NCBI GenBank assembly: GCA_016202975.1
Contig: JACQNR010000116.1
Location: 1-24,000 of the forward strand
Reading direction: 5' to 3'
From: Acidobacteriota bacterium
Lineage (GTDB): Bacteria; Acidobacteriota; Terriglobia; UBA7540
DNA: 24,000 nt
This document shows positions 4,032 to 22,672 of this stretch, one piece after another. Made by a program: the position numbers and the translations under genes. Numbering within the stretch: the first letter of the stretch is position 1; each line of letters starts with the position of its first letter. Under the pieces are notes generated by a model that was given only the letters and a program-made list of their open reading frames with translations, was not told the DNA's origin and did not search any database.

Positions 4032-4103
4032 CCGGCATTCTCGACGACAAAACCGAATTCGCCTTTTGCTCGATATGCGGTACTTGTCGCTTGTCACTCT
4101 GAG

Positions 4104-4563: not shown

Positions 4564-5976
4564 CTATTTCTGTCTTCGAGCAAATTCGGTCATCTCGCCG
4601 AGCATAGCATTGACTTGCTCGCCCCCGGGGGCCTCGGCATAGAGGCGGAGAAGGTTTTCCGTTCCGGAAGCGCGGACGAGGAGCCAAGCGGCTTCACCGA
4701 GGATCATTTTGGCGCCGTCGAGGTCTTCGACTGCCGTAACGTCGAGTCCAGCCACGCTCCCGATCTTCTTTTGGGCCACGTGGCGGACGAGGCGGTGCGC
4801 GACATCGCGCTCAATCTCGAGATCGACACGCCCGTATTCGTGAGGCCCGAATTCCTGATTCAACTCGCGAACCAGGTCGGCCAGGCCATGGTGTTTTTCG
4901 GCCATCACTTCGGCGAGGAGCAAGGCATTGAGCACGCCATCGCGCTCCGGCAAGTGGCCTTTGACGGCAATGCCGCCGCTCTCTTCACCGCCGATCAGCA
5001 CGTTGCGCGTGAGCATCAGATCGCAAATGTATTTGAATCCGATGGGAGTGATGTGCAGGGGCAAATCATATTTGCGGGCCAGCTTGTCGATCAACTGCGT
5101 TGTCGAGAATGTTTTGACGACTTCGCCGTTCAACCCCAGGTCTTCGACGAGATGGCGCAACAGCAGTGAAAATATTTTGTGCGAATCGACAAAGGCTCCC
5201 TTGCCATCGACCGCTCCAATCCGGTCCGCGTCACCGTCGGAGGCAAAGCCCGCGTCATAGGCCGACTCGATGACGGCCTTCTTCAGGCCGGCGACGTGCG
5301 GCTCGATGGGCTCGGGATTGAGGCCCGGGAAGAGCGGGTTATGGTCGCTGTGAATTTCGATGCACGGAATGCGAGCTTCTTCGAACAGGCGCGCCAGACA
5401 GCCGCGCGCCGCTCCATACATCGGGTCGACCACAAACCTGAGCCCCGAGGCGCGAATATGATCCAGGTGGACAAGGGTCTTGAGTTTTTCGAGGTAAGGA
5501 GTGACGAGATCCACCTTTTCGATGGGAGCGTCCTTGGCGCGTCGAGCCCTCGCGCCCCCTCGCATGACCCGGGCGAGTTGGGCTTCAACCTTCTTCATAA
5601 TGGCCGGAGACGCCGAGCCGCCGTAGGGTGCCTTAAACTTGACGCCGTTCCATCGGAAGGGGTTGTGGCTTGCGGTGATGACAATGGCGCCGGAAGTCCC
5701 ACGCGCCACGACGGCATAGCTTGCGGCGGGCGTGGGTGCAGGCTGGCTGGTGAGGAAGACGGGAATTCCTGCTGCCGCGACTTCCTCGGCTGCCGCCTGT
5801 GCTGCTTCTGCCGAAAGGAACCGTGTGTCGTACGCTACTATCAGGCCGCTCGATTTCGAGCTCTCCTTCCGAACGTATTGGGCGATGGCCGCACAGATGC
5901 GGCGAACATTCGCGAAATTGAAATCTTCGCCGATGAGTCCGCGCCAGCCGTCCGTGCCGAATTGAATATCACTCAT
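4564..5976 (-). CDS. Phosphomannomutase/phosphoglucomutase (alpha-D-phosphohexomutase family)
   Basis: All four family motifs are present: ITASHNPFRWNGVKF (catalytic Ser loop), FASDGDADRIGAVD (metal), IGGEESGGIAV (sugar) and VRASGTENLLRLY (phosphate). The track ORF extends to 6150, but the homologous N-terminus MSDIQFGTDGWRG starts at ATG 5976. That is 19 nt after the stop of the upstream gene. Confidence 0.9.
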   Translation of the reverse strand: MSDIQFGTDGWRGLIGEDFNFANVRRICAAIAQYVRKESSKSSGLIVAYDTRFLSAEAAQAAAEEVAAAGIPVFLTSQPAPTPAASYAVVARGTSGAIVITASHNPFRWNGVKFKAPYGGSASPAIMKKVEAQLARVMRGGARARRAKDAPIEKVDLVTPYLEKLKTLVHLDHIRASGLRFVVDPMYGAARGCLARLFEEARIPCIEIHSDHNPLFPGLNPEPIEPHVAGLKKAVIESAYDAGFASDGDADRIGAVDGKGAFVDSHKIFSLLLRHLVEDLGLNGEVVKTFSTTQLIDKLARKYDLPLHITPIGFKYICDLMLTRNVLIGGEESGGIAVKGHLPERDGVLNALLLAEVMAEKHHGLADLVRELNQEFGPHEYGRVDLEIERDVAHRLVRHVAQKKIGSVAGLDVTAVEDLDGAKMILGEAAWLLVRASGTENLLRLYAEAPGGEQVNAMLGEMTEFARRQK

Positions 5977-5995
5977 AAAAGTCTGCCTGCCGGCC

Positions 5996-7087
5996 TTATA
6001 AGAGACCTTTCCGTCCAAGACGGGCCAGTTCTTGTACGGCTTTCCCCACGTCCTGCGAGCGCGCGAGATCCGCGACGAGCAACGCGTCCTCGGTATCCAC
6101 GATGACGAAGTTCTTGATGCCCACGGTGACCACGGTTTTGTGCGGCGCAATGATCATATTACCGCGCGAATCAAGGCTGAGGCTGCCGCGCGGGCGTGCA
6201 TTGCCGTCGCGGTCCTTGCGGGCGAGATCGTGGACGACAGCCCAGCTTCCCACGTCACTCCATCCCATGTCGGCCTCGATCACATAGCAATCGGAGATGG
6301 ATTCCATTACCGCGTAATCGATGGAGACGTTTTCCAGTCGAGGGAAGACTCGTCGCAGCGCGCGGGTTGCACGCACGCCGCCCGCGGCGGAGATCCTGGC
6401 AAGCCCACTCGCCATTTCGGGTGTGGCGCGCTCCAGATTTCGGAGCAGGGTGGCGGCGCGCCAGATGAACATGCCGCCGTTCCAGAGATAGCGACCCGAG
6501 GCGACGTACCGGCGCGCGGTTTCAAGCCGCGGCTTTTCCGTGAAACGGCCGACCACGAAAAGTTGCTCCCCGTCCAGTTTCGCGGCGCGGCGACCCTTCT
6601 GGATGTACCCGTACCCGGTTTCCGGGCGGTCGGGTTTGAGGCCAATGGTCACCGATCGGCCTTGCACGGAAGCCCAGTGGCAGGCGGCGCGGAGCGCGCG
6701 GCGGAATCTTGCCGCCTTGCGTATGACGTGATCGGCGGGAAGAACGATCATGATGCCGTCCGGATCGCGCCGCAGAATTTCATGCGCGGCGAGCCCGATG
6801 GTGGGGGCAGTGTTGCGCGCCGCGGGTTCAGCAATAATTTGCCTGCGCGGAATATCAGGCAGACAGCGCGCGCAGGCGGACTTAAGGAGTTCGCTGGTGT
6901 AAACAAAAATTCGATCAGCGGGCAGGAAGCCTCGCAGGCGGCCGACGGTCTCTTCGAGCAGGGTTTCCTTGCTGAGGAGGGTCAGTAACTGCTTGGGGCG
7001 ACGGCGACGGCTGAGCGGCCAGAAGCGCGTTCCGCTTCCTCCCGCCATAATCACGGCGTAGGCATGTGCAAGGGCCGAGTCGCGCAT
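5996..7087 (-). CDS. manC: Mannose-1-phosphate guanylyltransferase (GDP-mannose pyrophosphorylase)
   Basis: MRDSALAHAYAVIMAGGSGTRFWPLSRRRRPKQLL... carries the nucleotidyltransferase signature GGxGTRxWPLS. The start was chosen at ATG 7087, whereas the track ORF begins at 7138. It lies 7 nt downstream of the manA-like stop. Confidence 0.88.
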   Translation of the reverse strand: MRDSALAHAYAVIMAGGSGTRFWPLSRRRRPKQLLTLLSKETLLEETVGRLRGFLPADRIFVYTSELLKSACARCLPDIPRRQIIAEPAARNTAPTIGLAAHEILRRDPDGIMIVLPADHVIRKAARFRRALRAACHWASVQGRSVTIGLKPDRPETGYGYIQKGRRAAKLDGEQLFVVGRFTEKPRLETARRYVASGRYLWNGGMFIWRAATLLRNLERATPEMASGLARISAAGGVRATRALRRVFPRLENVSIDYAVMESISDCYVIEADMGWSDVGSWAVVHDLARKDRDGNARPRGSLSLDSRGNMIIAPHKTVVTVGIKNFVIVDTEDALLVADLARSQDVGKAVQELARLGRKGLL

Positions 7088-7094
7088 CGTCAGT

Positions 7095-8153
7095 TTATTC
7101 CGCGAAAATGATTCGTTCGATCGTCGATGTCTGCACACCGCGCTTCAGGAGTGGCCGACGGAAATCCTTATCCACATCCGGCACGTAAAACTTCAGCAGC
7201 TGAGTTTTCTCGCGCGGCACGAGCCGGAACTCTGCGGCAGCGGGCGGGATCAGCCACGTGTCGCCACAGTGAAAACCCAGCCAGCCCGCAGGCGTCTCGA
7301 TGCGGCCCTCGCCCGCCAGCACGGACAGCACCTCGACGGCATGCCCCCGTCCGCGGAAGACCGCCCTCTTTTGCAGGTTTAGTTCCTCCAGGGCAAAGTA
7401 CCCGCACGCGGTAACGAAGCGATGAGAACCCCATGGTTCCTTCAAGCTTACGACGGGCAAGTTCCGCAGCGCGGGCGCATCGAGACGCGCGACCGCCAAC
7501 CCTTTTTCGAGGTGCAGCGGTCGCGGTTTCCCATCGAGTCCTTTGCGTCCAAAGTCGTCGAGGCGGTAGGTCAAGTCGGAGTTCTCCTCGACTTCGAACA
7601 GCACCAGGCCCGGGCCGAGCGCGTGGACGGTTCCGGGCGGCATGAAAACCGCTTCACCGGGCCGCGGATGGAACAAGTTCAGGTCCGATCGCGACGTGCC
7701 TTGTTCGAACGACGCCCTCAACTTTGCCGCGGTGACACGCGGCTTGACCCCGGCGAGGTACGCTCCCTTGCGCCCCGAGGACACCATATACCACAATTCG
7801 CATTTCCCGCGCTCCCCGGGATTGAAGCGCGCCGCCTGCGCGTCGTCCGGGTGAACCTGCACGGAAAGCCAGTCGCTGGTGTAGATATACTTGGCCAGCA
7901 GCGGGAAGCGGCGATCCTTCCACATTTCCCCATTCAGTTGCGGCCCAAATTGTTCGGAAGCCTCGCCGAGCGTCATGCCGGCAATCGGGCCATTCATGAA
8001 GCGCGATTCGCTGGCCGTGAGCCACACTTCGCCGATGAGTTCGCCAGGAGGGAACGAAGCGGGTCGCTTGAAAATAGGTTCCAATTTTTCGCGGCCCCAT
8101 ATTTTCGGGAGGAACACCGGCGAGAGCTGCAGAGGACTGTCAAGGTTGGGCAT
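7095..8153 (-). CDS. manA: Class I mannose-6-phosphate isomerase (phosphomannose isomerase)
   Basis: ...PKIWGREKLEPIF...GEVWLTA...RFPLLAKYIYTSDWLSVQVHPDD...GKCELWYMV...AVFMPPGTVHALGPGLVLFEVEENSDLTYRLDDFGR... matches the short bacterial type I PMI pattern, including the Zn-ligand contexts QVHPD and VHA. ATG 8153 (MPNLDSPLQLSPVF) is preferred over the track start 8195. Confidence 0.85.
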   Translation of the reverse strand: MPNLDSPLQLSPVFLPKIWGREKLEPIFKRPASFPPGELIGEVWLTASESRFMNGPIAGMTLGEASEQFGPQLNGEMWKDRRFPLLAKYIYTSDWLSVQVHPDDAQAARFNPGERGKCELWYMVSSGRKGAYLAGVKPRVTAAKLRASFEQGTSRSDLNLFHPRPGEAVFMPPGTVHALGPGLVLFEVEENSDLTYRLDDFGRKGLDGKPRPLHLEKGLAVARLDAPALRNLPVVSLKEPWGSHRFVTACGYFALEELNLQKRAVFRGRGHAVEVLSVLAGEGRIETPAGWLGFHCGDTWLIPPAAAEFRLVPREKTQLLKFYVPDVDKDFRRPLLKRGVQTSTIERIIFAE

Positions 8154-8214
8154 ACTAGGGCAATACGTCCAGCGGCGACCCTGCGCCGCCCTCACCGCGC
8201 TGAAGCCTCAGGAG

Positions 8215-8241
8215 CCGTGACGTGTTCGTATATCGTCACGG
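8215..8241 (-). other. Intergenic hairpin between the aminotransferase and manA (possible terminator or processing site)
   Basis: The perfect 8-bp inverted repeat CCGTGACG (8215..8222) / CGTCACGG (8234..8241) has an 11-nt loop. It begins 5 nt after the aminotransferase stop. No U-tract follows, so it is not a canonical intrinsic terminator. Confidence 0.3.
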
Positions 8242-8246
8242 CCGGT

Positions 8247-9419
8247 TCAAAGTTTCCCGCAGAATTCCTTGAGCCGCCGCACGCCTTCGTCGATTTGCTC
8301 CGTCGAAGTGGCGTAGGAAATCCTCACGTGCGGGTCGGTGCCGAACGCCGGGCCCGGGACAAGAGCCACGTGCGCCTCTTCCAGGAGCTTTTCCGCGAGC
8401 TGCGTGGCGTCCGTAATCCCGTTCTTTCCGATGTAGGCACCCAGGTTGGGATAAACGTAGAACGCGCCCTCGGGCATCCGGCACTTCACGCCCGGAATTT
8501 CGCGCAGGCCCGCCACGATGCGGTCGCGCCGGCGATGGTACTCGGCGAGCATGGCTTTGATGGAATCTTGCGGCCCGCGCAGCGCCTCCACAGCGGCCTT
8601 CTGCGCAATCGAAGTCGGGTTCGACGTCGAATGGCTCTGCAGCTTGAGCATATTGCCCATCAGCTTCGCCTGGCCCAGGGCGTATCCTACGCGCCAGCCG
8701 GTCATGGCAAACGTCTTTGAGAGCGAGCCGACGACAATCAAGTTCTCGCGATCCTTCGTGCTGGCGATCGAATACGGCTTTCTCCCGTCGTAGAGGAAAT
8801 GGCAATAGCATTCGTCGGACATCAGCAAAGCATTGTGCTTGACGGCGACCGCCAACAGCTTCTCCATTTCATCGGGTGGAACGACCGCCCCGGAGGGATT
8901 GGAGGGCGAATTCACGATAATCATGCGGGTCCGCGGCGTGATAAGCTTTTCCACGTCGCTGGCGCGCACCGTGAATCCTTCGTCCTCGCAGGTCTCCAGC
9001 AGCACGACTTTGCCGCCCGCGTAGTTGACGATATCCATAAACGAAACCCAATACGGAACGGGGAGAATCACCTCGTCGCCGTGATTGATCGTGGCCATGA
9101 TGGCTTCGAAAATCGCGTGCTTGCCGCCCACGGTCACGATGCACTCGTCCGGCGAGTAATTGGAAGAAAAGTCGCGCGCGTGCCACTCCACGATCGCTTG
9201 CTTGAGCTCGCGCGTGCCCCCGGCGGGCGTGTACTTGGTGAAGTTCGCATCGAGCGCCGCCACAGCGGCCTGCTTGATGTTCTGGGGGGTCGGGAAATCC
9301 GGCTCGCCGGCGCCAAAGTCGACGACTTTAATGCCGCTGGCCTTCATCTTGTCCGCCTTGGCCATCACGGCCATGGTGGACGACACAGATATTCTGGAAA
9401 TTCGTTCGGAGAACTGCAT
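8247..9419 (-). CDS. PLP-dependent aminotransferase, class I/II (aspartate aminotransferase-like)
   Basis: MQFSERISRISVSSTMAVMAKADKMKASGIKVVDFGAGEPDFPTP...YTPAGGTRELKQAIVEW...VNSPSNPSGAV...GSLSKTFAMTGWRVGYALG. The PLP-lysine motif SxSK and the GEPDF motif are both present. Confidence 0.9.
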   Translation of the reverse strand: MQFSERISRISVSSTMAVMAKADKMKASGIKVVDFGAGEPDFPTPQNIKQAAVAALDANFTKYTPAGGTRELKQAIVEWHARDFSSNYSPDECIVTVGGKHAIFEAIMATINHGDEVILPVPYWVSFMDIVNYAGGKVVLLETCEDEGFTVRASDVEKLITPRTRMIIVNSPSNPSGAVVPPDEMEKLLAVAVKHNALLMSDECYCHFLYDGRKPYSIASTKDRENLIVVGSLSKTFAMTGWRVGYALGQAKLMGNMLKLQSHSTSNPTSIAQKAAVEALRGPQDSIKAMLAEYHRRRDRIVAGLREIPGVKCRMPEGAFYVYPNLGAYIGKNGITDATQLAEKLLEEAHVALVPGPAFGTDPHVRISYATSTEQIDEGVRRLKEFCGKL

Positions 9420-9439
9420 AGGATAATTGACCTCGCTGG

Positions 9440-9928
9440 TTATTTTGGAAAAACTTTCTTCCGAAGGCGCTCTTCGACAACGGGTGGGACGAGTCCCTTC
9501 ACCGACCCGCCGTGCATGAAGATCTCCTTCACCAGGCGCGAACTGATGTGGCTGAAGGCTTCGGCAGGGGTGAGGAAGACAGTCTCAATTCCCGGTTCGA
9601 GGCCGCGATTGGTGAGTGCCATCTGAAGCTCATATTCATAATCCGAAAAGGCGCGAATGCCGCGCAGAATGGCACGCGCGCGCTTGCGCCGCGCTTATTC
9701 GACGAGCAGTCCGCCGAAAGTGTCTATCGAGACTTATGACAAGCCTTTGGTCACCGTCCGGAGCATTTCGACGCGTTCCTTTATGGTAAACAATGGTTGT
9801 TTATCGAAGTTCGTCAGCACAGCAACCACCAGGCGGTCAAACAACCGGCTGCCGCGGCGGATCAAATCCAGATGCCCGCGGGTGAGGGGGTCGAACGATC
9901 CGGGATAAATGGCGAGGACTTCGGACAT
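9440..9928 (-). pseudogene. coaD: Phosphopantetheine adenylyltransferase (CoaD) reading frame interrupted by two in-frame TAA codons
   Basis: Track ORFs 9734..9928 ([64 protein letters not shown]) and 9440..9622 (MALTNRGLEPGIETVFLTPAEAFSHISSRLVKEIFMHGGSVKGLVPPVVEERLRKK...) are in the same frame. My translation of the piece between them gives ...[47 protein letters not shown].... One frame of 162 codons matches CoaD end to end. It is broken only by TAA at 9736..9734 and 9697..9695. Confidence 0.85.
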
Positions 9929-9972
9929 GAGTGCAAAATCGGGCTCGGTAGAAATGCACTGTTCGAACGTTC

Positions 9973-10002
9973 ATTCTAGCGTCCGGTTCGCAGGGTTGTA
10001 AA
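9973..10002 (-). promoter_or_regulatory. Candidate sigma70-type promoter upstream of coaD
   Basis: On the minus strand: TTTACA (10002..9997), an 18-nt spacer, then TAGAAT (9978..9973). The overlapping palindromes GTTCGAAC (9961..9968) and GAACGTTC (9965..9972) sit at the predicted transcription start. Pattern match only. Confidence 0.3.
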
Positions 10003-10019
10003 CGGGATTCTCGCCGCTG

Positions 10020-10976
10020 CTAGAGCAGGGCTCCCATGCAACTGGAGCCGCTTCCCGCCGTGCAGCCGTAGCAATGCTGCCCGGTACGGATTTCGCGGCT
10101 CGCGAGCAGATAAGCATCGAAATCGCGAATATGATGCGGCAGTCCGTGATTGACACGCAGGCCGAGCATTTGGTTGAAATCGCAATCATAAAGCGTGCCG
10201 TCCCAGCCGACGCTCACCAAGCTCCGGCACATCAGGTCTTCGATCGTCGTGGGATTGAACTTCTCCTCCAGCAGCGCCATGTAAGTTTCATACTTGCCGC
10301 TGCGACTGAGGTCAGTGAGAAACCGGCTAATGGGCATGTTGGTGAGCGTGTAAAGGCGGTTGAAGATCACGCCGTGCTCGTCGCGCAGGTGCTGGTGGTA
10401 ATCTGCCTCGAGCGCTTCCTGCGGCCCGGGCAGATACGGCCCGACCGGGTTATAGACCAGATTGAGTTTCAGGCCGGTTTCCGGCTGGCCGTAGCCGTGC
10501 TGGTTCAGTATGCGCAGGGCTTCGATGCTTTTGGTGAAGACGCCCTTGCCTCGCTGTTTGTCCACGTTCTCTTCCGTGTAACAGGGAAGAGACGCCGTGA
10601 CTTCCACCTGCTGGTCTCGCAGGAAAGCGGGCAGATGTTGGTTGCCCTCGACGAAAAACACAGTCAGGTTGCAACGGTCGATAACGTGACGGCCCAGTGC
10701 ACGCGCCTCGCGTACGAGGAATTCGAAATTCGGATTGAGTTCCGGCGCGCCCCCTGTAATGTCGACCGTGTTGATGGTGTGACGGCGAAGCACGTCTATA
10801 ACGAGCTCTGCCGTCTGGCGTGTCATGATCTCGGTACGAGTGGGCCCGGCGTCCACGTGGCAATGCCGGCAAGTCTGGTTGCAGAATTTTCCGACGTTGA
10901 CTTGAAGCGTCTCAATGCCCGCCGCGCGCAGCGGCCACTGGCTGATTTCTACGAGCTTTGCTTCAAATGCAAGCAC
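10020..10976 (-). CDS. arsS: ArsS-type radical SAM enzyme (radical SAM / Cys-rich C-terminal domain family; Cys rather than Sec form)
   Basis: ...PLRAAGIETLQVNVGKFCNQTCRHCHVDAGPTRTEIM...TVDITGGAPELNPNFEFLV...LKLNLVYNPVG...FNRLYTLTNMPISRF...SVGWDGTLYDCDFNQML...GQHCYGCTAGSGSSCMGALL. It has the canonical CX3CX2C motif plus the Cys-rich tail typical of the family that NCBI names arsenosugar biosynthesis radical SAM (seleno)protein ArsS. The start is uncertain. GTG 10976 is preceded by AAGGGGA 6 nt upstream and is preferred. The track start is TTG 11021. Confidence 0.8.
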   Translation of the reverse strand: MLAFEAKLVEISQWPLRAAGIETLQVNVGKFCNQTCRHCHVDAGPTRTEIMTRQTAELVIDVLRRHTINTVDITGGAPELNPNFEFLVREARALGRHVIDRCNLTVFFVEGNQHLPAFLRDQQVEVTASLPCYTEENVDKQRGKGVFTKSIEALRILNQHGYGQPETGLKLNLVYNPVGPYLPGPQEALEADYHQHLRDEHGVIFNRLYTLTNMPISRFLTDLSRSGKYETYMALLEEKFNPTTIEDLMCRSLVSVGWDGTLYDCDFNQMLGLRVNHGLPHHIRDFDAYLLASREIRTGQHCYGCTAGSGSSCMGALL

Positions 10977-11066
10977 GCAAATCCCCTTATGCCTGGTAAG
11001 GGACGCCCTGTCGCACAACAAACTTACAAAACCGCGGAGAGATTTTACCGCACTCGGGAATCATTG

Positions 11067-12479
11067 TCACAACATGAAAACAAGCGCAACGGCGCCGGCG
11101 AAACTCGTGCCGGTGAAGTTGACGATGCCGTTGGTGACCAAGCCGCGACGTTCGATCGTTGCGCCGAGCAAGCTGTCGAGAAGATTCCCGGCAAGTGCCG
11201 CGCCCCATGCAAGGGCCGTTCCACCGGGCCCGCATAGGCCCAATCCGAAGCCTACGGCGACAACAATAGCCGAAGCCATAAATCCCGCCAGCGTGCCGCC
11301 TATAGACACTCCGCCGTCTTCTCCCGCGGGAACGGGTTTGAATGTTGTGATGAGGTAGGCTCGCTGCGAAAGCCATTGGCCGATCTCGCTTGAGACGGTG
11401 TCGCCTGCAGCCTCGGCAAAGGCAGCAACCAGCGCGACGAGAAACGCTGCTTCGTGATGAGTGGTGATGACGAGAACGGCGAAGAAAGCCCCGGCGAGTG
11501 AGTTTGCCGTCGCCTCACGCCAACTGCGCCGGCCGCCGCGCCTTTCCGCAACGCCCCGCTTCGCTTTGCTCGCGTAGCCGACCCGCGTGGCCAACGAACC
11601 GAGAACAAAGAATGCGAACAGAATGAGGAAGCTCTTCCAGCCGTAGCCAAGATATATGGCAACGCCCAGAAAAAATCCCGCGGCGGCGCCCGAGCGATCA
11701 ATGAATTTCAGCCCCAGCGCCAGCAGTGCGAAAAAGGCATTGATACCCACGGCGAAAATGGCGCGTTGGCTAAGGTAAGGCAGATTCGCTCCGAGGGCTG
11801 ACCATTCCATCAGGTAGGCGCAGAACAGGAAGCCTCCGGTTACGAGCGGGACCGAAACATTATCGTCAAGCCGCACCGGGACGCTCTCAACGAGCGCGCC
11901 CACGAGAGCACCTGCAATCGAAACGAGGAATGCTTTCTCCGCAGGAAATGCAGGTGCGACCCAGCGCGCGAGAACGTAAGCTCCAGCTGCTCCCGCAAGT
12001 GCGAACGCGAGAAATCCCGACCACCGCTTTTCGCTGTTCCAAGGCAGCGCAGGCCCGCGCAGCGATTCACCCGCCACGCTCGCTATGCCGTCTCCAAGCG
12101 CGAGAATTGCCCAAGCCGAAGCCGCCACGTGCAGGTGATGACGATAGAGAAGAATGAGCGCCAGCACGGAAATGGGATAAAGAACAACTCCGGTCCAGTC
12201 GCTGGTGGTTCGATCCCGTCCCTTGCGGAGGTCCACGGCTAATCGCGGAAGGAGAAAAATGTTGAACAGCAGCGCCAGAATCGCACAACCTGCTGCCTGC
12301 ACCCAGGTCAGAATGGGGAGAAGGAACGCAAACGCGAGCATCGAAATGTGGACCACCTTGCGAGTCGTGATGAGCGGTCGGCGGGCGATGGAAATATCGG
12401 TCGAAGGAGACATGTTAGTGAACGGAAGATTCAAGACACCAAAATGGAAAGTGAGTGCGACCCGGGTCCCAATTCCCAA
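11067..12479 (-). CDS. Polytopic membrane fusion protein: N-terminal phytol/dolichol-kinase-like (CTP-dependent polyprenol kinase, VTE5-like) domain + C-terminal DUF92 (TMEM19/VTE6-like) domain
   Basis: N-terminal half: ...WAILALGDGIASVAGESLRGPALPWNSEKRWSGFLAFALAGA...GALVESVPVRLDDNVSVPLVTG. This matches the GDGxAxxVG...LPxNxxKSWxG...VES.P...DDNxxVPL pattern of the phytol/dolichol kinase family. C-terminal half: ...FFVLGSLATRVGYASKAKRGVAERRGGRRSWREATANSLAG...AAFAEAAGDTVSSEIGQ...ITTFKPVPAGEDGGVSIGGTLAG. This matches the DUF92 pattern (...GGxR...ANG...ADTxxSExG...VxxGTxGGxSxxG). The protein is hydrophobic throughout. The start is uncertain, either TTG 12479 or ATG 12413. Confidence 0.75.
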   Translation of the reverse strand: MGIGTRVALTFHFGVLNLPFTNMSPSTDISIARRPLITTRKVVHISMLAFAFLLPILTWVQAAGCAILALLFNIFLLPRLAVDLRKGRDRTTSDWTGVVLYPISVLALILLYRHHLHVAASAWAILALGDGIASVAGESLRGPALPWNSEKRWSGFLAFALAGAAGAYVLARWVAPAFPAEKAFLVSIAGALVGALVESVPVRLDDNVSVPLVTGGFLFCAYLMEWSALGANLPYLSQRAIFAVGINAFFALLALGLKFIDRSGAAAGFFLGVAIYLGYGWKSFLILFAFFVLGSLATRVGYASKAKRGVAERRGGRRSWREATANSLAGAFFAVLVITTHHEAAFLVALVAAFAEAAGDTVSSEIGQWLSQRAYLITTFKPVPAGEDGGVSIGGTLAGFMASAIVVAVGFGLGLCGPGGTALAWGAALAGNLLDSLLGATIERRGLVTNGIVNFTGTSFAGAVALVFML

Positions 12480-12511
12480 TCTCTGGTTTCTTCAACGCAA
12501 ATAATTAATCG

Positions 12512-13486
12512 CTATTCCACCAAATCACCCACTGTTTTCCTCAGTCCTTCCTCGAGGGGCGTTACGTGATATCCGAGTTCTGCTGCGGCCTTGGCGCCCG
12601 AATACACCCAGTCGTGCTTGAAGGTTTCGGCCACGCCCGGTGTGAGTTGTGGCTTGTGACCGAACATGCTGGCGCGCATGACCTCCACGCCCCCCGCTAT
12701 CTTACCCGCCCAGAATGGCAGGTGCCGCGGTGGGCGCCGTACGCCGGTGAGTTCGCCGAGCACGCGGAAGAAATCGTTCAGCGACCGATTGTCGCCCGCC
12801 AGAATGTATTGCTGGCCAGTCATTCCTTTCTCAAGCGCCGCGAGATGCGCTGCGACCACGTCGGCATTGTAGGCAAAGCTCCAGCGCTGGTTGCCGTCGC
12901 CGAGCAGGCCGGGAAATTCCCCCGCGAGGTATTGGTCCACCATGCCGCCCACAAGGTTCCCTTCGGTTTTCGGGCCTGGCCCGTACATCACGCCGGGTAG
13001 CAATGTGACGACAGGATATTTGTCCTCCTGAGCGCGCAACCAGTCGAGCGCCTCGGCCTTGGTCTGTTCATACTCATTCGAATAGGGGCCACGATGGACG
13101 AGGCTCTCGTCGCCGGTCGCGTAATCCGAGGGCCCGAGAGCGATGAACGAGGAAGTATAAATGATTCGCTGGACGCCGGAATTCACCGCTGTCTGAAGCA
13201 GGTTTTGAAATCCCGCCACGTTGATCCGCCAAAACTCGCGTGGATCGCGCACCCACATTTTGACCAGCGCGGCGGTGTGAATGAGCTGTTCCACTCCTTT
13301 CAACGCGGTCCGCAAGGCAGCCAGATCCGTGATGTCGCCCACGGCGACCTCGCAAGGGGATGCCGCAGTACTCATCGGTAATCGCGCTGGATCGCGCACC
13401 AGGACGCGTAACGGCATCTTGCGCCCATTGATTTCGCGCGCGATCTGCGAACCGAGATAACCTGTTGCGCCAGTGAGAAGGATCAT
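12512..13486 (-). CDS. NAD(P)-dependent epimerase/dehydratase/reductase, extended SDR family (HpnA / dihydroflavonol-reductase-like)
   Basis: MILLTGATGYLGSQIAREI carries the Rossmann motif TGxxGxxG. Further features are ...IHTAAL..., ...IYTSSFIALG... and the catalytic YxxxK in SNEYEQTKAEA. At 324 aa it has the typical length of an extended SDR. Confidence 0.85.
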   Translation of the reverse strand: MILLTGATGYLGSQIAREINGRKMPLRVLVRDPARLPMSTAASPCEVAVGDITDLAALRTALKGVEQLIHTAALVKMWVRDPREFWRINVAGFQNLLQTAVNSGVQRIIYTSSFIALGPSDYATGDESLVHRGPYSNEYEQTKAEALDWLRAQEDKYPVVTLLPGVMYGPGPKTEGNLVGGMVDQYLAGEFPGLLGDGNQRWSFAYNADVVAAHLAALEKGMTGQQYILAGDNRSLNDFFRVLGELTGVRRPPRHLPFWAGKIAGGVEVMRASMFGHKPQLTPGVAETFKHDWVYSGAKAAAELGYHVTPLEEGLRKTVGDLVE

Positions 13487-13533
13487 TGCTTCATCGGCTC
13501 ATTGAACCATTGATTCATCGGACGGAGAAACTG

Positions 13534-13577
13534 GAAATTCGAAACTCGAGGACAGAGGTGCGCGAGTTTCCATTTTC
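13534..13577. repeat. Imperfect 15-nt inverted repeat in the UbiA-SDR intergenic gap
   Basis: GAAATTCGAAACTCG (13534..13548), a 14-nt loop, then CGAGTTTCCATTTTC (13563..13577). 13 of 15 positions are complementary and the inner 8 bp are perfect. It is built from reiterated GAAA(C/T) units. Confidence 0.6.
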
Positions 13578-13619
13578 GGGTTTCGATTCTCGCTTTCTTC
13601 CCTTCATCCAGCGATTGCC

Positions 13620-14516
13620 TCAATGACTCAATAGGTAAGCCCCTGCCAAACCCAAGTGTCCGACCATCATCATCCAGTACATGTGGTGCCAGGCGGGATG
13701 ATTTTCCCCTTCGGAGACGAGCCGGCGGGGATCCTCGTTCATGAGGTAAATAACGTACGACCCCCAGACGAGCATGATCGCTGCAAGCGCCAGGATAGCT
13801 GGCGCGCGCCCGCTCAACACGTGCAAAGCCACGCCTAGCGGCAAAAGAAGCCAGGGCACGATAAACGCCGGGCTGATGGCACGAGCGCTCCATTCGGCGC
13901 CATATCGAACTGGCAGGGTGATGCACCCGGCGGCGCGGTCGCCTTCAATGTCAGCGAAATCCTTGGTGGTTGTTGCCCCGAGGAGGAATACGAAATAAAT
14001 GCAGCCGATGTACCACGGCTCGATCGAAGTGAGGACGGTTGAAACCGCGGCCCAACCCGCAACCTTGAGCAGCCAACCGCGGATGAGAGCGATGATGAGA
14101 TTCGATCCCAAGGGGTCCCGTTTCAGGCGCACCGGAGGGGCCGAATAGGCGACGGTGGAAACTGCCGCGACGCAATAGATGGCAAAGGTCTCGCGATTGA
14201 CCAGCGCGGCCATCGCGAGCGCCACCGCATAAGTGATCGCGACAAATGTCCACGCAGGGCGGAGCGTCAGGCGGCCCGAAGGCAGTGGGCGGTGCGGCTT
14301 GTTGATGCGGTCGTTCTGAAGGTCGCAAATCTGGTTCAAGCCGTTGGAGGCGGCGTTGAGCACGCCTGCCGCAAGGACCGCAAGCGCCACGTGCACAGCG
14401 GGAAACTCGACGTGCGACGCGCCGTAACCGATGAGCGAGCCGGAAAATATCCCGACCATCGGCGGGACAAGCGTAAACGGGCGAGCGAAGGCCCAATAGA
14501 GGCGGAGAAAATTCAT
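13620..14516 (-). CDS. UbiA-superfamily membrane prenyltransferase (Asp-rich motifs NQxxDxxxD and KDxxDxEGD)
   Basis: MNFLRLYWAFARPFTLVPPMVG...NGLNQICDLQNDRINKPHRPLPSGRL (motif 1 at 14310..14336) ...LLGATTTKDFADIEGDRAAGCITLPVRYG (motif 2 at 13938..13964). The protein is multi-TM. ATG 14516 is preferred. The track start, TTG 14666, would overlap the upstream gene by 83 nt. Confidence 0.88.
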   Translation of the reverse strand: MNFLRLYWAFARPFTLVPPMVGIFSGSLIGYGASHVEFPAVHVALAVLAAGVLNAASNGLNQICDLQNDRINKPHRPLPSGRLTLRPAWTFVAITYAVALAMAALVNRETFAIYCVAAVSTVAYSAPPVRLKRDPLGSNLIIALIRGWLLKVAGWAAVSTVLTSIEPWYIGCIYFVFLLGATTTKDFADIEGDRAAGCITLPVRYGAEWSARAISPAFIVPWLLLPLGVALHVLSGRAPAILALAAIMLVWGSYVIYLMNEDPRRLVSEGENHPAWHHMYWMMMVGHLGLAGAYLLSH

Positions 14517-14583
14517 TCGCGACGTATTGTCGGATTTCTTGATGGGGCTTACAAGCGCAAATGCTTTAGATGAAAGGCAAACG

Positions 14584-15003
14584 TCATTCAGGAATTTCGA
14601 AGGGGAATGCGCGGCGCAAATGGGCGGGGCGTTTTTCGGGGTGGAATCCGGAATTGACGAAGGCAAGCCATTCTGCGATGTCGCCGGGATTTAATTCGCC
14701 GTCTTTCAAATCGACTCCGCCGTAGCTGTAGCGATCGCGGCTGTAAGGCACTAGGCTTCTTTTGTAGAAGAAGATAAGCGTATGGCCAGGTCGCGGGCTG
14801 AAGATCTTTATTCGACCCCGGTTGGGGAGACCCGAGGGAAGCCGGTCAGTGGCGCGAGCCTCAAGTCCCACTGCATCCGTGGAAATCTCGAAATTATCGC
14901 GTGACTGGTCGATCGTTTCACAGACGGCTCTCGCCACGGCGCTCTGCGCCAATTCATGTCGGAGCTTGGCTTGAACTTGGGGACTCGCTCGATTCAGGAT
15001 CAT
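14584..15003 (-). CDS. Hypothetical protein (139 aa), no family recognised
   Basis: An ATG-initiated ORF packed between the radical-SAM-like gene (73-nt gap) and the UbiA gene (67-nt gap) on the same strand. By eye its codon usage resembles its neighbours. It has no TM segment or signal peptide. Sequence: MILNRASPQVQAKLRHELAQSAVARAVCETIDQ...GGVDLKDGELNPGDIAEWLAFVNSGFHPEKRP.... Confidence 0.55.
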   Translation of the reverse strand: MILNRASPQVQAKLRHELAQSAVARAVCETIDQSRDNFEISTDAVGLEARATDRLPSGLPNRGRIKIFSPRPGHTLIFFYKRSLVPYSRDRYSYGGVDLKDGELNPGDIAEWLAFVNSGFHPEKRPAHLRRAFPFEIPE

Positions 15004-15076
15004 GGTACGGACTTAATACGCCAGAGAAGTTCTGGCACCCGATTGGACAACTCTTGCGCTCGGGGCAGGGATTCGA

Positions 15077-16393
15077 TTATTCCTGCAGAATATCCGAGGC
15101 CGCAATCTTCCGGGGCCGTCGCTTCCACCAAAAGTAAGGCTTAGCCAGTTGCCGGGCGGCCGCTAACTTCATGCTGTACCACCGTGCACCCCAGTTACGT
15201 GGCGCCAGATAGCGCGTGTCACCCGGCTGGACGATCAGGCTTACTTCGATATTGGGTGTGACATCAATCGGGATATTGTTTTTCCGGCACGCTTCGTAGA
15301 GGTGGCGGAAGACGATCACCATGTCCTCGTAGTGCGGTGGCGGCCAGTGCTCCATGTCGGCGCCTAGAGTGGGGCGAAAGATACAAACGGTTGGAAACGC
15401 GCCGAGGCTGGTAATGTAATCGATGCCTTTAAGCGTGTCTTCGATGGGCTCAACGCCGGCAATGATTTCGCCCGAGCACGCGCCCTTGCCGAGTTTGTTA
15501 GAAGTGTATTCGAGTGCCCGAAAGAAGGTCTTTTGCCCAACCAGTTTCTCCTTCCCCGGCAGAACTTTTGCGAAGAAGTCAGGGTTATGGAACTCGTAAC
15601 AGAAACTGAAGTGATCCGCCCCCAGGTCCATCAAGCGGTGGTATTTCCAAAAGTCAAGGGTGGGGATCAATTGCACCCCAATGAGCGCCCCCACGCGCGA
15701 TTTGACCGCTTTAACATAGGGCGCGGCCACGTCGAGATCGCGGTCGGTCTGGTAGCCCGAGTTGAAGTGCACGAAGGTGAGGTCGGATTCCTCTTTCGCC
15801 GCCCGGCAGACCTCCACGACATCCTGGATATCTTTCACGGCAACTTCATTTACTCCGACGTTCAATCCCGTCGCGCAAAATCGGCAGTTGAGCGCGGGCG
15901 AGTGATACCAGAAGCCGCAGGAATTTGAAATGTAGATGCCGAGGTAGGTTCCCTGCAGGACGCCAACTTTATGCATGGGTGTGCCGCGCGAAGTTGTGCG
16001 CGTGTACCACGCGGGTTCCGGCGGAATACGAATGGAATAAGCGTGCCCAGTGCGATCATCCGTCACCGAGTATTTGCCCGAGTCGAGCCCCAGCCAATAG
16101 CACGATTGCTGCGCAAAGTCTTCCTCGACAGGGACGTTGACCCAAACGTCTTTGATCGCCCCCGGAATCACGATCTCGAGCCCGCTGCCGAGCCCGGCGC
16201 GGGTCCGGGAAATAAATCGCGCGTCCTGCTCGAGCGCGCAGGAAGGATCGATGCGCATGCCCTTGCAGAAGAGATCGATCTCAAGTTCGCAAGGGTTGAG
16301 TGGAGTTGCGCCCGCCGCAGGCGCTGGAATGGATAGAGCGCGCGTAACGCTCGATTCGAGCGGCGGTACGAGACTCTGTCCGACGGAGGCCAT
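15077..16393 (-). CDS. Radical-SAM-like Fe-S enzyme with non-canonical CX10CX2C cluster motif and a ~150-aa N-terminal extra domain
   Basis: ...VLQGTYLGIYISNSCGFWYHSPALNCRFCATGLNVG... has Cys159, Cys170 and Cys173, encoded at 15875..15919. Later TIM-barrel-like elements are FVHFNSGY, GVQLIP, GADHFSFCYEF, ACSGEIIAGVEPIEDTLKGIDYITSLGAFPTVCIFRPTLG. The start was chosen at ATG 16393, which is preceded by GGAGGA (ggcGGAGGAagccaATG). The track ORF reaches 16750, but those extra 119 codons look non-protein-like. Confidence 0.7.
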   Translation of the reverse strand: MASVGQSLVPPLESSVTRALSIPAPAAGATPLNPCELEIDLFCKGMRIDPSCALEQDARFISRTRAGLGSGLEIVIPGAIKDVWVNVPVEEDFAQQSCYWLGLDSGKYSVTDDRTGHAYSIRIPPEPAWYTRTTSRGTPMHKVGVLQGTYLGIYISNSCGFWYHSPALNCRFCATGLNVGVNEVAVKDIQDVVEVCRAAKEESDLTFVHFNSGYQTDRDLDVAAPYVKAVKSRVGALIGVQLIPTLDFWKYHRLMDLGADHFSFCYEFHNPDFFAKVLPGKEKLVGQKTFFRALEYTSNKLGKGACSGEIIAGVEPIEDTLKGIDYITSLGAFPTVCIFRPTLGADMEHWPPPHYEDMVIVFRHLYEACRKNNIPIDVTPNIEVSLIVQPGDTRYLAPRNWGARWYSMKLAAARQLAKPYFWWKRRPRKIAASDILQE

Positions 16394-16828
16394 TGGCTTC
16401 CTCCGCCCCATCATCTTCCACCCGCGGCGCGCCGTCAACCCCAAAGCAACGCCGATTTGGTGGGGCGAGATATTAGTCAAGAACAAACCACGCGGTTTGC
16501 CAAGTGCTCCCGCCGCGGGTGCGGAGCTTAACTTCCGAGTGCATCCGACCGAATTCCGGCACCCAGGTCGTGGCGTAACGCGCCGCGAGATCTCGGGCGA
16601 GTGAAGTTTTGCCGGCAGATTCTGTTCCGACGATTCATGCAGGCACAGGTTGGCGTCAGGCCCGAGGCCGGTTGTTGAGATTTTGTTAAATTCTTGAGCG
16701 ATGAACTTGGGAGGAAAAGAGGATTGGAGGAATGAATGCAAGAAATCCATGGTGGGAGACTAAGGTTTTTCAATTACTTTCTTCAGCGACGCTTTAGATT
16801 AGATGTCTTGGAGCGGATAGGTAAAAAA

Positions 16829-16844
16829 TTTCCCCGTGGGGAAA
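16829..16844. promoter_or_regulatory. 7-2-7 inverted repeat TTTCCCC-GT-GGGGAAA in an AT-rich intergenic region (operator-like)
   Basis: Read directly from aaaaaaTTTCCCCGTGGGGAAAgttt. The loop is too short for a stable RNA hairpin, so a dimeric protein binding site is more plausible. Confidence 0.35.
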
Positions 16845-16882
16845 GTTTACGCGCTCTATCATGAAAAGCCTGAATCCACTTT

Positions 16883-16913
16883 TTGACATGACTCACGTGA
16901 GCCTTGGTAAATT
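16883..16913 (+). promoter_or_regulatory. Promoter-like element with an embedded perfect 10-bp palindrome
   Basis: TTGACA (16883..16888), a 19-nt spacer, then TGgTAAATT (-10-like TAAATT at 16908..16913). The spacer contains the perfect palindrome CTCACGTGAG (16892..16901). The spacer is longer than optimal, and no convincing plus-strand gene follows directly. Confidence 0.2.
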
Positions 16914-17057
16914 CACAAAATAAAGGAGAAACAAAACACCGCCGTCGCCCCGCTTTTGGTGCGATACGTGCATGACCCTTGGGTCAGTACGAACAGGACT
17001 AGATGGCGCTTGGCTAAACGCACTAAAGTCGGGAGCAAGCGAAAAATGTCTCCTTGG

Positions 17058-17237
17058 TCAAGAAAATCCAGTCGCCAGCGGACTCATGACCGGTCCAAAT
17101 CGGCTCCGACAATTTCCACGCGCAAGCGAAAGTCCCTCGGCGACATCGTTTTCATTTCTGACCCGCACCTGCTCAAAAAATACCCCTGGCTCCTCGCCTG
17201 CAGCAATATCAGATTTGACCGCTAGCCGCGCCGTCAT
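17058..17237 (-). CDS. Possible small ORF (59 aa) or gene remnant; coding status and strand unresolved
   Basis: It falls below the track size cutoff. ATG 17237 is preceded by GGAGGAG (17251..17245) 7 nt upstream. Translation: MTARLAVKSDIAAGEEPGVFFEQVRVRNENDVAEGLSLARGNCRSRFGPVMSPLATGFS*. It is fully antisense to the 3' part of + ORF 16956..17225, which contains a metallophosphoesterase-like GDIVFISDPHL string. Neither strand is convincing. Confidence 0.2.
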   Translation of the reverse strand: MTARLAVKSDIAAGEEPGVFFEQVRVRNENDVAEGLSLARGNCRSRFGPVMSPLATGFS

Positions 17238-17362
17238 TCACAATCTCCTCCAAATTTCAATCGCCTTCTTGGGTCATGAAATCTCGCCCTTGGCCGCGGG
17301 CCGTTTGAGCCAGAAACGTCAGTCGTGAGGGTGCTTTTTCGCTCCGTCTCGAATTGAGGTTG

Positions 17363-17368
17363 TATAAT
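17363..17368 (+). promoter_or_regulatory. Candidate -10 box (perfect TATAAT, with TG just upstream) for the FG-GAP/ASPIC gene
   Basis: ggtTGTATAATttgag lies 48 nt upstream of ATG 17416. There is no good -35, so an extended -10 type promoter is possible. Confidence 0.3.
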
Positions 17369-17415
17369 TTGAGTTTGGCCATTGGAACGGATTTGGGACT
17401 TACCAGCAAGCCAAA

Positions 17416-20400: not shown

Positions 20401-21063
20401 AAGACCGTCATTGAAGATATGGGCGTTCCGAGCGGCACAGACCGTACGATGCGAGTCGATCTCAGGGGGAAATTCCTCAGCGACCGGCGCGAGGTGCGCA
20501 TCGTGACCAACATGTGTGTTTACTGGGACGAGGCATTCTTCACGACCGAAGAAGGCGCGGCGCCCGCGACGTTCGAATTGCCGCTTGTCTCCGCCGACCT
20601 GCACTATCGGGGCTTTTCCACCCCAGAACTCGACCCTCAAGGGGTAAAGCCCGAGCACTTCGATTACTCGAAGGTGTTGGCCGAGGCGCCATGGAATCCC
20701 ATGATCGGGAATTACACGCGCTATGGCGATGTTCACAACCTGCTGGGAAAAGCGGACGACCATCTGGTGGTGATGGCGACGGGCGACGAAATAACTGTGG
20801 AGTTCGACGCCGGGCATCTACCCCCGCTTCAGCCCGGATGGAAACGAACATACTTCTTGTACACGCACGGCTGGGCGAAGGACGGCGAACCGAACACCGC
20901 GTATTCCAAGACCGTCGCGCCGCTTCCGTTCCGCCGCATGTCGGGCTACCCGCAGACTTCGGGAGACCTAGGGCCCGACGCTCCGGATTATCGGGAATAT
21001 TTGAGGGAGTACCAGACAAGGCGCCGGTACGAATTGATTCCATCACTCGCGCCCGTGCAGTAG
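17416..21063 (+). CDS. Large secreted TPR + FG-GAP/VCBS repeat + ASPIC/UnbV-domain protein (CRTAC1-like family)
   Basis: The N-terminal signal or anchor is MSRTMARVLRIILLILLAFGACLVF. TPR units follow (IGKAYYEQAKYVEAIEEFKKVI..., NLGILYKRELRYPDAEASLRRVIEADP...). At least five Ca-binding FG-GAP motifs are present: GDLNQDGQPDMYIAN, FFDGDNDGFLDLLVA, GDFDNDGYTDAVIL, TDFNHDGYFDLALW, ADVDGDSFDDLILV. The ASPIC/UnbV-like segment is RWLEVRMTGFKSNTLGIGSVVELKAG. Alternative starts are ATG 17434 and 17446. Confidence 0.88.
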   Translation: MGARSRMSRTMARVLRIILLILLAFGACLVFPRRATEAEEPAFMADAGLLAQPQDPKAPRATSPRGAKRAAAPARKTSSSVQSLRNIGKAYYEQAKYVEAIEEFKKVIASGSAVATDHLNLGLALMQAGKLNDALASFTTAKQIDPKLVPVDYNLGILYKRELRYPDAEASLRRVIEADPRDPAAWFNLGTVYFAQRKLEEALQAHGHVVEMGFGQGQNFYVASLFHSFTTLVRLKRQEEAQKFLKMHESMRDAVPGISLQNSALEGGKYGAVLVPSSPLTTVARRAATANVSFSDVTARLGIAAPAPSASLRPEALPGVKSDGFSLEYARRELQPRFGPYLAVGDLNQDGQPDMYIANPAGGSRLYQNNGDGSFTDVTEKFGLPESEAAFSAVFVDHNNGACTSLLVTGDSGVHLYRAKGDGNGKCDGVFVDDTDRAGLRGKPGELTTAAAFFDGDNDGFLDLLVARYADLNSLPHHDPFTFPNDFQGGGVRFYRNNADGTFTDRTSHSGFGSVPGRVRKILFGDFDNDGYTDAVILRDDAAPLIYFGKGECRFVNRTAETGNDFVQTVAVDGAVTDFNHDGYFDLALWSPAGYQVLINRGGGRFAEEKGLPSITPPIGVFAFRGTVADVDGDSFDDLILVDSDGKWHWLANRAGKFREEELTLPEGKTGSLGAFRATWLSTAGKLNLVAVARAGNVTAFEKDGPASRWLEVRMTGFKSNTLGIGSVVELKAGNFYNKLLVNGDRVRVYTGDLPRLDVVRVTWPNAVVQNWVNVSTDKPMEVRESERLASSCPFLYVWNGREFEYVTDVLGVAPLGHLLPSGGYVRPNPEELVRLGDQLQPRNGRYVFQLTDELREVDYFDQVRLLAVDHPASEEVYSNEVFLESLGSPTLHTVKQHRAPGAARDQDGRDVLPLVRTADKAYVSGFRRLGIPGLASEHALELDLGKLDPAAPVALYLRGWVYWTDSNSHRALVSNRSTILTPPYLQVRDVSGAWKTVIEDMGVPSGTDRTMRVDLRGKFLSDRREVRIVTNMCVYWDEAFFTTEEGAAPATFELPLVSADLHYRGFSTPELDPQGVKPEHFDYSKVLAEAPWNPMIGNYTRYGDVHNLLGKADDHLVVMATGDEITVEFDAGHLPPLQPGWKRTYFLYTHGWAKDGEPNTAYSKTVAPLPFRRMSGYPQTSGDLGPDAPDYREYLREYQTRRRYELIPSLAPVQ

Positions 21064-21096
21064 GACAGGTCCGGGTCGATTTCATCCCCCGCCCGG

Positions 21097-21125
21097 TTGA
21101 GGTGCGCCTCCGACGGGCATATACT
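21097..21125 (+). promoter_or_regulatory. Candidate sigma70-type promoter upstream of the decayed molybdoenzyme/fdhD locus
   Basis: TTGAGG (21097..21102), a 17-nt spacer, then TATACT (21120..21125). Pattern match only. Confidence 0.25.
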
Positions 21126-21164
21126 TTCCATGCTACAGGGCTGCGTTGCTCAATTTCGATTGGA

Positions 21165-22655: not shown

Positions 22656-22672
22656 AAAGTTCCATCCTCCCT

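Follow-up and report, generated by a model that had tools for sequence, protein, structure and literature searches.

What makes a run of neighbouring genes a pathway? The question is raised by six consecutive genes on the minus strand of a 24,000-nucleotide stretch of acidobacterial DNA (contig JACQNR010000116.1; hereafter the window, meaning the whole stretch). Read 5' to 3', they encode a variant radical S-adenosylmethionine enzyme (rSAM), a 139-aa protein, a UbiA-superfamily prenyltransferase, a short-chain dehydrogenase/reductase of the extended type (SDR), a membrane protein that joins two kinase-like domains (the fusion) and a second radical SAM enzyme, of the ArsS family. The window has a G+C content of about 60%, and in a protein database search the nearest relatives of its proteins are from uncultured Terriglobia, phylum Acidobacteriota. 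The initial annotation of this DNA put the six genes forward, on the strength of their adjacency, as a candidate pathway to an isoprenoid or prenyl lipid. When we compared about 170 related loci, in searches anchored on the variant rSAM, the fusion and ArsS, the block split into three units: the trio of UbiA, SDR and fusion, the rSAM with its 139-aa partner, and ArsS. We favour the idea, with a probability of roughly 55%, that the block is an evolutionary mosaic around one UbiA prenyltransferase and not a single six-gene pathway.

Part of the evidence for this idea comes from the trio, that is, the prenyltransferase of the UbiA superfamily, an extended SDR resembling HpnA and the two-domain membrane protein, whose halves resemble VTE5/dolichol kinase and DUF92/VTE6, respectively. 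When distant fusion proteins were used to seed a metagenome scan, 80 loci came up, 78 of them carrying a fusion only 35–50% identical to that of the window. Among the informative distant loci, the gene immediately upstream of the fusion is the SDR ortholog in 46 of 60 and the one immediately downstream is UbiA in 34 of 50; both are present in 25 of 44, and these SDR and UbiA proteins match the same family profiles as those of the window. The gene order, however, is SDR-fusion-UbiA in the distant loci and UbiA-SDR-fusion in the window and the Terriglobia. Since the trio is kept in rearranged order while all its other neighbours change, it bears the signature of a functional cluster, and the three genes form a widely conserved module. 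The earlier proposal that a kinase pair feeds the UbiA enzyme fits this joint travel across distant lineages. ArsS, rSAM and the 139-aa gene occur in none of the 80 metagenome loci, and all three are also absent from several other Terriglobia loci: where the fusion is 67–70% identical to that of the window, UbiA-SDR-fusion is followed directly by coaD-aminotransferase-PMI-GMPP-PGM, without ArsS or rSAM. In the literature we found no paper on a conserved SDR-fusion-UbiA cluster in non-photosynthetic bacteria.

Could the whole arrangement, trio included, be conserved synteny of housekeeping genes that nothing functional links? The genes from coaD to PGM, as well as those for NusB, an enoyl-CoA hydratase and a GGDEF protein, are indeed syntenic across Terriglobia, but descent does not predict that three genes be retained in rearranged order, at 35–50% identity and beside differing neighbours, and we grant this explanation hardly any probability. 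Three apparent SDR-kinase 'Rosetta-stone' fusions (P0304, P0346 and P0301) were rejected, since Arg-rich out-of-frame stretches join their domains, as expected of frameshift or gene-calling artefacts. These proteins come from high-G+C contigs, and their like could mislead domain-fusion analyses.

The description of the block itself has largely held. All six reading frames are present with the ends first given, the coordinates again yield gaps of 73, 67, 133, 32 and 45/90 nt, the plus-strand reading frames that overlap them are no more than shadows, antisense to genes with strong support, and profile hidden Markov model (HMM) searches of the six proteins mostly uphold the family assignments. 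One start has moved: an identical database protein (P0121) is 448 aa long, so the fusion probably begins at 12413, not 12479, and the gap between SDR and fusion is then 98 nt. It is the single-unit claim that the neighbourhood comparison does not support: this comparison, which the initial annotation had itself named as a possible refutation, splits the block. The claim, in which one operon encodes one pathway and the product of kinases and UbiA is modified by the SDR and by two radical enzymes, can draw on the short gaps, on a promoter and terminator scan of the window that gave no convincing terminator between the genes, on the proximity of the rSAM pair to this UbiA in two further loci (L044 and L067, below), and on a shared order: the complete block recurs in L001, L004, L005, L013, L045, L056 and L165, and incompletely in L002 and L003. 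However, these carriers are all close relatives of the window (their rSAM proteins are 77–85% identical), the only ones with the block, and their common order may be mere inheritance. Each unit also occurs without the others: the rSAM pair is found mostly in unrelated contexts, and ArsS stands alone or next to an ArsM-like gene. In addition, the scan showed nothing above background except a single promoter-like site, at 11070-11042, just upstream of ArsS. Finally, genes on the same strand carry on past ArsS, with coaD, an aminotransferase, PMI, GMPP and PGM, as far as position 4564, so the lower boundary of the block is arbitrary and adjacency alone cannot delimit a six-gene unit. We consider the one-pathway reading very unlikely. 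In some relatives, lineage-specific genes lie within the block or next to it: a protein of about 630 aa, aldo/keto reductase-like as we read its sequence, sits between the rSAM unit and UbiA in L004 (4218-6101) and L056, and in L165 a 751-aa GT4 glycosyltransferase and a GH130 gene follow ArsS (11309-14600). The junctions between units thus tolerate insertions.

Table 1. The six genes of the block, with the fusion divided into its two domains, in window coordinates.
Feature	Position	Strand	Basis of assignment
Variant radical SAM enzyme, 438 aa, CX10CX2C instead of CX3CX2C	15077..16393	-	NF045502 'variant_rSAM' 184.7 bits (cut-off 125)
139-aa partner protein of rSAM	14584..15003	-	Conserved C-terminal motif, rSAM adjacency, fusions
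UbiA-superfamily prenyltransferase, hub of the block	13620..14516	-	PF01040 142.6 bits
Extended SDR (NAD-dependent epimerase/dehydratase-type), HpnA-like	12512..13486	-	PF01370 (Epimerase) 120 bits, 3Beta_HSD 83 bits
Fusion, N-terminal half: putative COG0170 domain, polytopic and membrane-bound, resembling dolichol kinase and VTE5 phytol kinase	11775..12413	-	Stand-alone homologs, archaeal parallel
Fusion, C-terminal half: DUF92 / COG1836 domain	11067..11774	-	PF01940 181.7 bits (gathering 27.5)
ArsS-family radical SAM, 318 aa, C-terminal Cys-rich tail ...HCYGCTAGSGSSCMGALL	10020..10976	-	TIGR04167 457.9 bits (cut-off 300)

What might the trio do? The C-terminal half of the fusion, which is the only part covered by PF01940, scores 186.7 bits against TIGR00297, just below the cut-off of 205.85; VTE6, the phytyl-phosphate kinase of plants and cyanobacteria, belongs to DUF92/COG1836 (PMC9782597, PMC3223725). 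The N-terminal half is silent in Pfam and NCBIfam even at E <= 10, and its profile finds nothing among solved structures, CarS and CdsA included. A profile search with this domain nevertheless returned 1865 representative clusters, made up of fusions of about 450 aa (35–49% identity) and of stand-alone proteins of 190–200 aa. The stand-alone homologs are named 'dolichol kinase' in IMG, and a single one of them gives a weak PF01148 match (E = 0.015). An approximate sequence of Arabidopsis VTE5, usable as a lead only, was matched by BLASTP at E = 1e-11, with the motifs GDGxA, PxNxxKSWxG and VESxP...DDNxSVPL in common. A COG0170+COG1836 fusion linked to isoprenoid genes was described in archaea by Makarova et al. 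in 2015, and by HHpred both of its halves belong to the cytidylyltransferase/dolichol-kinase superfamily, the N-terminal one with a probability of 99.85% to COG0170 (PMC5898192). The dolichol-kinase-named homologs and the archaeal fusion are in keeping with the VTE5-like assignment first proposed for the silent half.

The UbiA protein carries both Asp-rich motifs of its superfamily (NQICDLQND and KDFADIEGD), and its scores reach the cut-off of none of the named NCBIfam subfamilies (ChlG/BchG, HPT, DGGGPS, MenA, UbiA/COQ2, CyoE, EboC and MqnP); the best are PRK12884 with 119 bits against 269, ChlG with 114 against 313, HPT with 113 against 226 and DGGGPS with 92 against 296. Among solved structures it is nearest to digeranylgeranylglyceryl phosphate (DGGGP) synthase (6m31), at 79 bits, followed by chlorophyll synthase at 54 bits. 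In the SDR, GATGYLG is the Rossmann motif and YEQTK (YxxxK) the catalytic one. Of the named models it scores highest with HpnA (TIGR03466), reaching 184.1 bits against a cut-off of 367.65, so the protein falls short of HpnA itself, and the window contains no hpn genes; among solved structures the nearest is 3wj7, a 'putative oxidoreductase' (148 bits).

Two loci bear on the donor of this UbiA. In L044, from another member of the Terriglobia, positions 9076-14526 hold a polyprenyl synthetase, an rSAM, a type-I phosphodiesterase of the alkaline-phosphatase superfamily, a homolog of the 139-aa protein and a UbiA 55% identical to that of the window. In L067 (7053-14654), from a low-G+C uncultured bacterium, the neighbours of the rSAM include a polyprenyl synthetase and a UbiA, 47% identical to the window's and here joined to a phosphodiesterase domain in a single 988-aa protein. 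The polyprenyl diphosphate synthase of both loci occupies the place held in the window by the kinases, which argues that this UbiA takes a prenyl diphosphate as donor and that kinases and synthase are alternative suppliers of it. Judged by its protein families, the probable role of the trio is to salvage free isoprenoid alcohols and couple them to an acceptor molecule. The COG0170 half would phosphorylate such an alcohol, be it farnesol, geranylgeraniol, phytol or some longer prenol, and would probably do so with CTP; the DUF92 half would add the second phosphate to give the prenyl diphosphate; and UbiA would ionise this allylic diphosphate and move the chain onto the acceptor. The SDR, whose step is the least certain, may act on the same lipid stream, either as an oxidoreductase that interconverts prenal and prenol ahead of the kinases, or by tailoring the acceptor or the product.

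Other chemistries have been weighed against this one. The trio could make a polyprenyl-phosphate-linked sugar for the envelope, in the manner of decaprenyl-phospho-arabinose, with the kinase regenerating polyprenyl phosphate, UbiA coupling a phospho-sugar, and the SDR, which is of the nucleotide-sugar epimerase/dehydratase type, epimerising or reducing the sugar. Five distant loci (L087, L097, L104, L121 and L126) carry LptD-like, RmlA-like nucleotidyltransferase and RmlD genes, together with another two or three SDRs of the sugar type, 3–6 kb upstream of the fusion on the same strand, as identified by reading the sequences and not by family search, and GDP-mannose genes follow the trio in Terriglobia. 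Both of these neighbourhoods, and the phosphodiesterase-type domain joined to UbiA in L067, which recalls a phosphatase step, speak for such a sugar. Nonetheless, the UbiA is similar to transferases of the DGGGP, chlorophyll and homogentisate-phytyl kind, whose donors are prenyl diphosphates, and not to the phosphoribosyltransferase type; two kinase-like domains would be superfluous for a monophosphate; a polyprenyl diphosphate synthase stands in for them in L044 and L067; and the sugar genes are housekeeping genes that lie on different sides in different lineages. A lipid-linked sugar is thus unlikely.

An archaeal-type isoprenoid ether phospholipid is another proposal. UbiA would O-alkylate a glycerol-phosphate or dihydroxyacetone-phosphate derivative, the SDR would reduce a keto intermediate, as SDRs do with alkyl-dihydroxyacetone phosphate in ether-lipid synthesis, and one or both of the CTP-transferase-like domains would form a CDP-lipid in the way of CarS or CdsA. 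It is the best solved relative of UbiA, DGGGP synthase, and the shared cytidylyltransferase superfamily of the two fusion halves that commend this scheme. It is highly improbable even so: geranylgeranylglyceryl phosphate synthase and glycerol-1-phosphate dehydrogenase are not nearby in any of the loci, CarS and CdsA stayed unmatched in the structure search, and we know of no isoprenoid ether lipids from Terriglobia.

The second unit of the mosaic, the rSAM with its 139-aa partner, has a distribution of its own. The enzyme has 3126 homologs (68–87% identity among the top 120), and its C159-x10-C170-x2-C173 motif is invariant in the 41 homologs aligned. Further invariant cysteines (35, 265 and 337) suggest an auxiliary cluster. 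An AlphaFold2 model (mean predicted local distance difference test score 81.5) shows the partial TIM barrel of radical SAM enzymes and matches AprD4, HydE and LipA in Foldseek with a probability of 1.0, and also MgmA; these are generic barrels only. By sequence there is a weak match to BioB and just 16.5 bits to PF04055, and with 99 bits against a cut-off of 303.7 the protein lies outside the MSMEG_0568 family (TIGR04043). ArsL, of arsinothricin synthesis, was rejected as a relative, since its motif is the canonical CX3CX2C. To our knowledge no member of NF045502 has been characterised.

The search anchored on this enzyme found relatives in 545 species-level genomes, from which 80 loci were kept and the window proteins compared by tblastn. 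In 51 of these 80 loci a homolog of the 139-aa protein, detected by HMM, adjoins the rSAM gene on one side or the other, and in at least six lineages the domain is fused to the C-terminus of the enzyme (P0011, P0025, L007 and three Eisenbacteria loci) through natural-looking, partly conserved linkers. The adjacency and the fusions indicate that the two proteins work together, although their pairing is not obligatory in cis. What had been called an orphan is a real conserved gene, without match in Pfam or NCBIfam, whose product ends in the aligned motif NRxRxKxF...FFxKxSxVPxSxDRxSYG...W...SG..P..RP..LRRAFxxxIPE; a literature search gave no paper on the pair. The wider surroundings vary: the UbiA of the window lies within 10 kb of rSAM in only 12 of the 80 genomes, most of the other loci have unrelated housekeeping genes that differ by lineage, and the genes next to the pair (YvcK-like, TPR, rhodanese, dienelactone hydrolase, YceI, ETF-QO and QueG-like) have no common theme. 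Upstream of the rSAM start lies about 1 kb without a supported gene (16394-17415), which reaches to a divergent TPR/FG-GAP gene. Within it the rSAM frame stays open as far as 16750, terminator-like hairpins occur at 16844-16829 (-), and no Rfam family matches.

Together with the window, L044 and L067 make three clusters, each of a different build, in which the rSAM unit adjoins a UbiA of this subfamily, and this recurrence keeps alive the hypothesis of a functional tie between the two. In the initial annotation both radical enzymes could tailor the product: for ArsS, which is separable, this is not supported, and for the rSAM pair, which adjoins the same UbiA subfamily in two further clusters, it survives as a hypothesis. 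The rSAM and the 139-aa protein would work as a complex and may act on the acceptor or on the product of UbiA. In a narrower variant, only the rSAM pair, UbiA and a supplier of prenyl diphosphate would form a new pathway to a prenylated metabolite, a possibility that we regard as doubtful.

The third unit, ArsS, is probably a passenger, judging from its family and its contexts. The protein has the CX3CX2C motif of its family (CNQTCRHC), a DUF3641 domain (184 bits) and a C-terminal ...GSGSSCMGALL, and the ArsS family acts on arsenic (10.64898/2026.04.29.721666). Its distribution is limited to some Terriglobia, and four ArsS-anchored contexts were read: the six-gene block (L165); ArsS alone in an unrelated setting (L166); fusion and ArsS adjacent without UbiA or SDR (L167); and UbiA-SDR-fusion-methyltransferase-ArsS (L168). 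An ArsM-like gene directly precedes ArsS, between it and the fusion, in L168 (8817-10025) and in L013 (15183-16520); the two proteins score 354–360 bits with NF040538 and about 205 bits with the arsenite methyltransferase subfamily, both below the curated cut-offs. In L168 the ArsM-like gene overlaps the called start of ArsS. The absence of arsM noted earlier holds for the window, where there is no ArsM-like reading frame anywhere and hence no arsM pairing, but not for these relatives. As an arsenic-organification gene, ArsS would add a 5'-deoxyadenosyl group to methylated arsenic, and it may have been inherited at this spot with an adjacent arsM or after the loss of arsM, without being needed by the prenyl module.

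One scheme would unite all the units on a single product in this lineage of Terriglobia. The kinases would make phytyl or geranylgeranyl diphosphate from a salvaged alcohol, ArsS and an arsM located elsewhere would provide a 5-dimethylarsinoyl-ribose head, the DGGGPS-like UbiA would O-prenylate that head, and the rSAM and its partner would tailor the result into a bacterial arsenosugar-prenyl lipid. Such a lipid would be kin to the arsenosugar-phytol of algae, and the scheme has next to no probability in our eyes.

Several points weigh against a mosaic built on a prenol-salvage trio: (i) The N-terminal domain leaves PF01148 unmatched in 33 of 33 diverse fusions. (ii) Both halves of the fusion belong to a superfamily that includes cytidylyltransferases, and one of them could make a CDP-activated lipid, not a diphosphate. 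(iii) Nucleotide-sugar genes are frequent neighbours of the trio (rmlA and rmlD in distant loci, along with dehydratases and LptD; those for GDP-mannose here), which would also suit a lipid-linked sugar pathway. (iv) No domain fusion supports the SDR link. (v) The breadth of the trio, going by the source names of the distant fusions, which are Vicinamibacterales and Terriglobales only, appears to be established within Acidobacteriota only. (vi) Fusion and ArsS stay adjacent where UbiA and SDR have been lost, and the six-gene order is found in at least nine Terriglobia, so ArsS may have a lineage-specific functional tie.

The aminotransferase, PMI, GMPP and PGM genes (4564-9419 (-)) and the region at 3234-4526 (+) are part of a conserved Terriglobia synteny, and the order aminotransferase-PMI-GMPP-PGM, followed by genes for NusB, an enoyl-CoA hydratase and a TPR-GAF-GGDEF protein, is shared with L081, L165, L167 and L168. 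From this housekeeping synteny it follows that much of the gene order of the window is plain inheritance. Next to ArsS, coaD (phosphopantetheine adenylyltransferase; 9443-9928 (-)) is 78% identical to an ortholog over its full length, but its frame is broken by two TAA stops, one where Asn65 and one where Tyr78 would be. Either this gene, normally an essential one, has become a pseudogene, or the assembly or consensus is in error. At 20514-23029 (+), overlapping short reading frames with fragmentary matches to molybdopterin oxidoreductase (21344-21832) and FdhD (22097-23029) may represent a disrupted or mis-framed formate-dehydrogenase region. Rfam and tRNA scans of the window gave no match.

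What do these units mean for the bacteria that carry them? The salvage elsewhere of farnesol and geranylgeraniol has been termed a 'missing pathway', and the conserved clusters of SDR, fused VTE5/VTE6-like kinase and UbiA in non-photosynthetic soil Acidobacteria are bacterial candidates for prenol salvage with a built-in consumer enzyme. In ecological terms, abundant litter-degrading bacteria may reuse phytol or polyprenols derived from plants. The rSAM and the 139-aa protein, in turn, now define a widespread and highly conserved variant radical SAM enzyme with a dedicated partner domain. There is also a caution here, in that co-directional adjacency in one genome had merged three separate units into one; it is the smaller conserved module that merits experiments.

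How do these units compare with known systems? As the parts come from known families and the fusion architecture has been described before, the trio cluster is, in our analysis, best filed as a variant of the VTE5-VTE6-prenyltransferase logic, accompanied by an unrelated arsenic gene and by a new rSAM pair whose link to it is loose. It shares with the phytol salvage of plants and cyanobacteria (VTE5, VTE6, and VTE2/HPT, MenA or ChlG) both kinase families, a putative COG0170-like one and DUF92/COG1836, a UbiA of the ChlG/HPT/DGGGPS-like group as the likely consumer of the diphosphate, and the sequence of alcohol, monophosphate, diphosphate and transfer. However, and in spite of these similarities, the two differ in several respects: (i) here both kinases lie in one polypeptide, clustered with an HpnA-like SDR; (ii) the host is a non-photosynthetic soil acidobacterium, and genes for tocopherol, phylloquinone or chlorophyll are absent; and (iii) the UbiA stays below the cut-off of every named subfamily. 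The archaeal COG0170+COG1836 fusions (for example Mbar_A3310; PMC5898192) have the identical two-domain architecture, with both domains predicted to be isoprenoid kinases, but they are linked to uppS, whereas the partners in the window and in the distant bacteria are UbiA and the SDR.

With the cyanobacterial ArsM-ArsS arsenosugar module, in which ArsS yields 5'-deoxy-5'-dimethylarsinoyl-adenosine, the window has in common an ArsS that passes the NCBIfam equivalog cut-off, and two relatives (L013 and L168) have the ArsM-like gene upstream; the window, in contrast, has no arsM, and the ArsM-like proteins of the relatives are below the cut-offs. The variant rSAM, for its part, is like the MSMEG_0568-type and other NF045502 'variant' enzymes, and like the barrels of BioB, HydE and LipA, in its cluster-binding motif and barrel fold, and it is set apart from these by an N-terminal domain of its own and by the dedicated 139-aa protein that accompanies it as a partner or as a fused domain.

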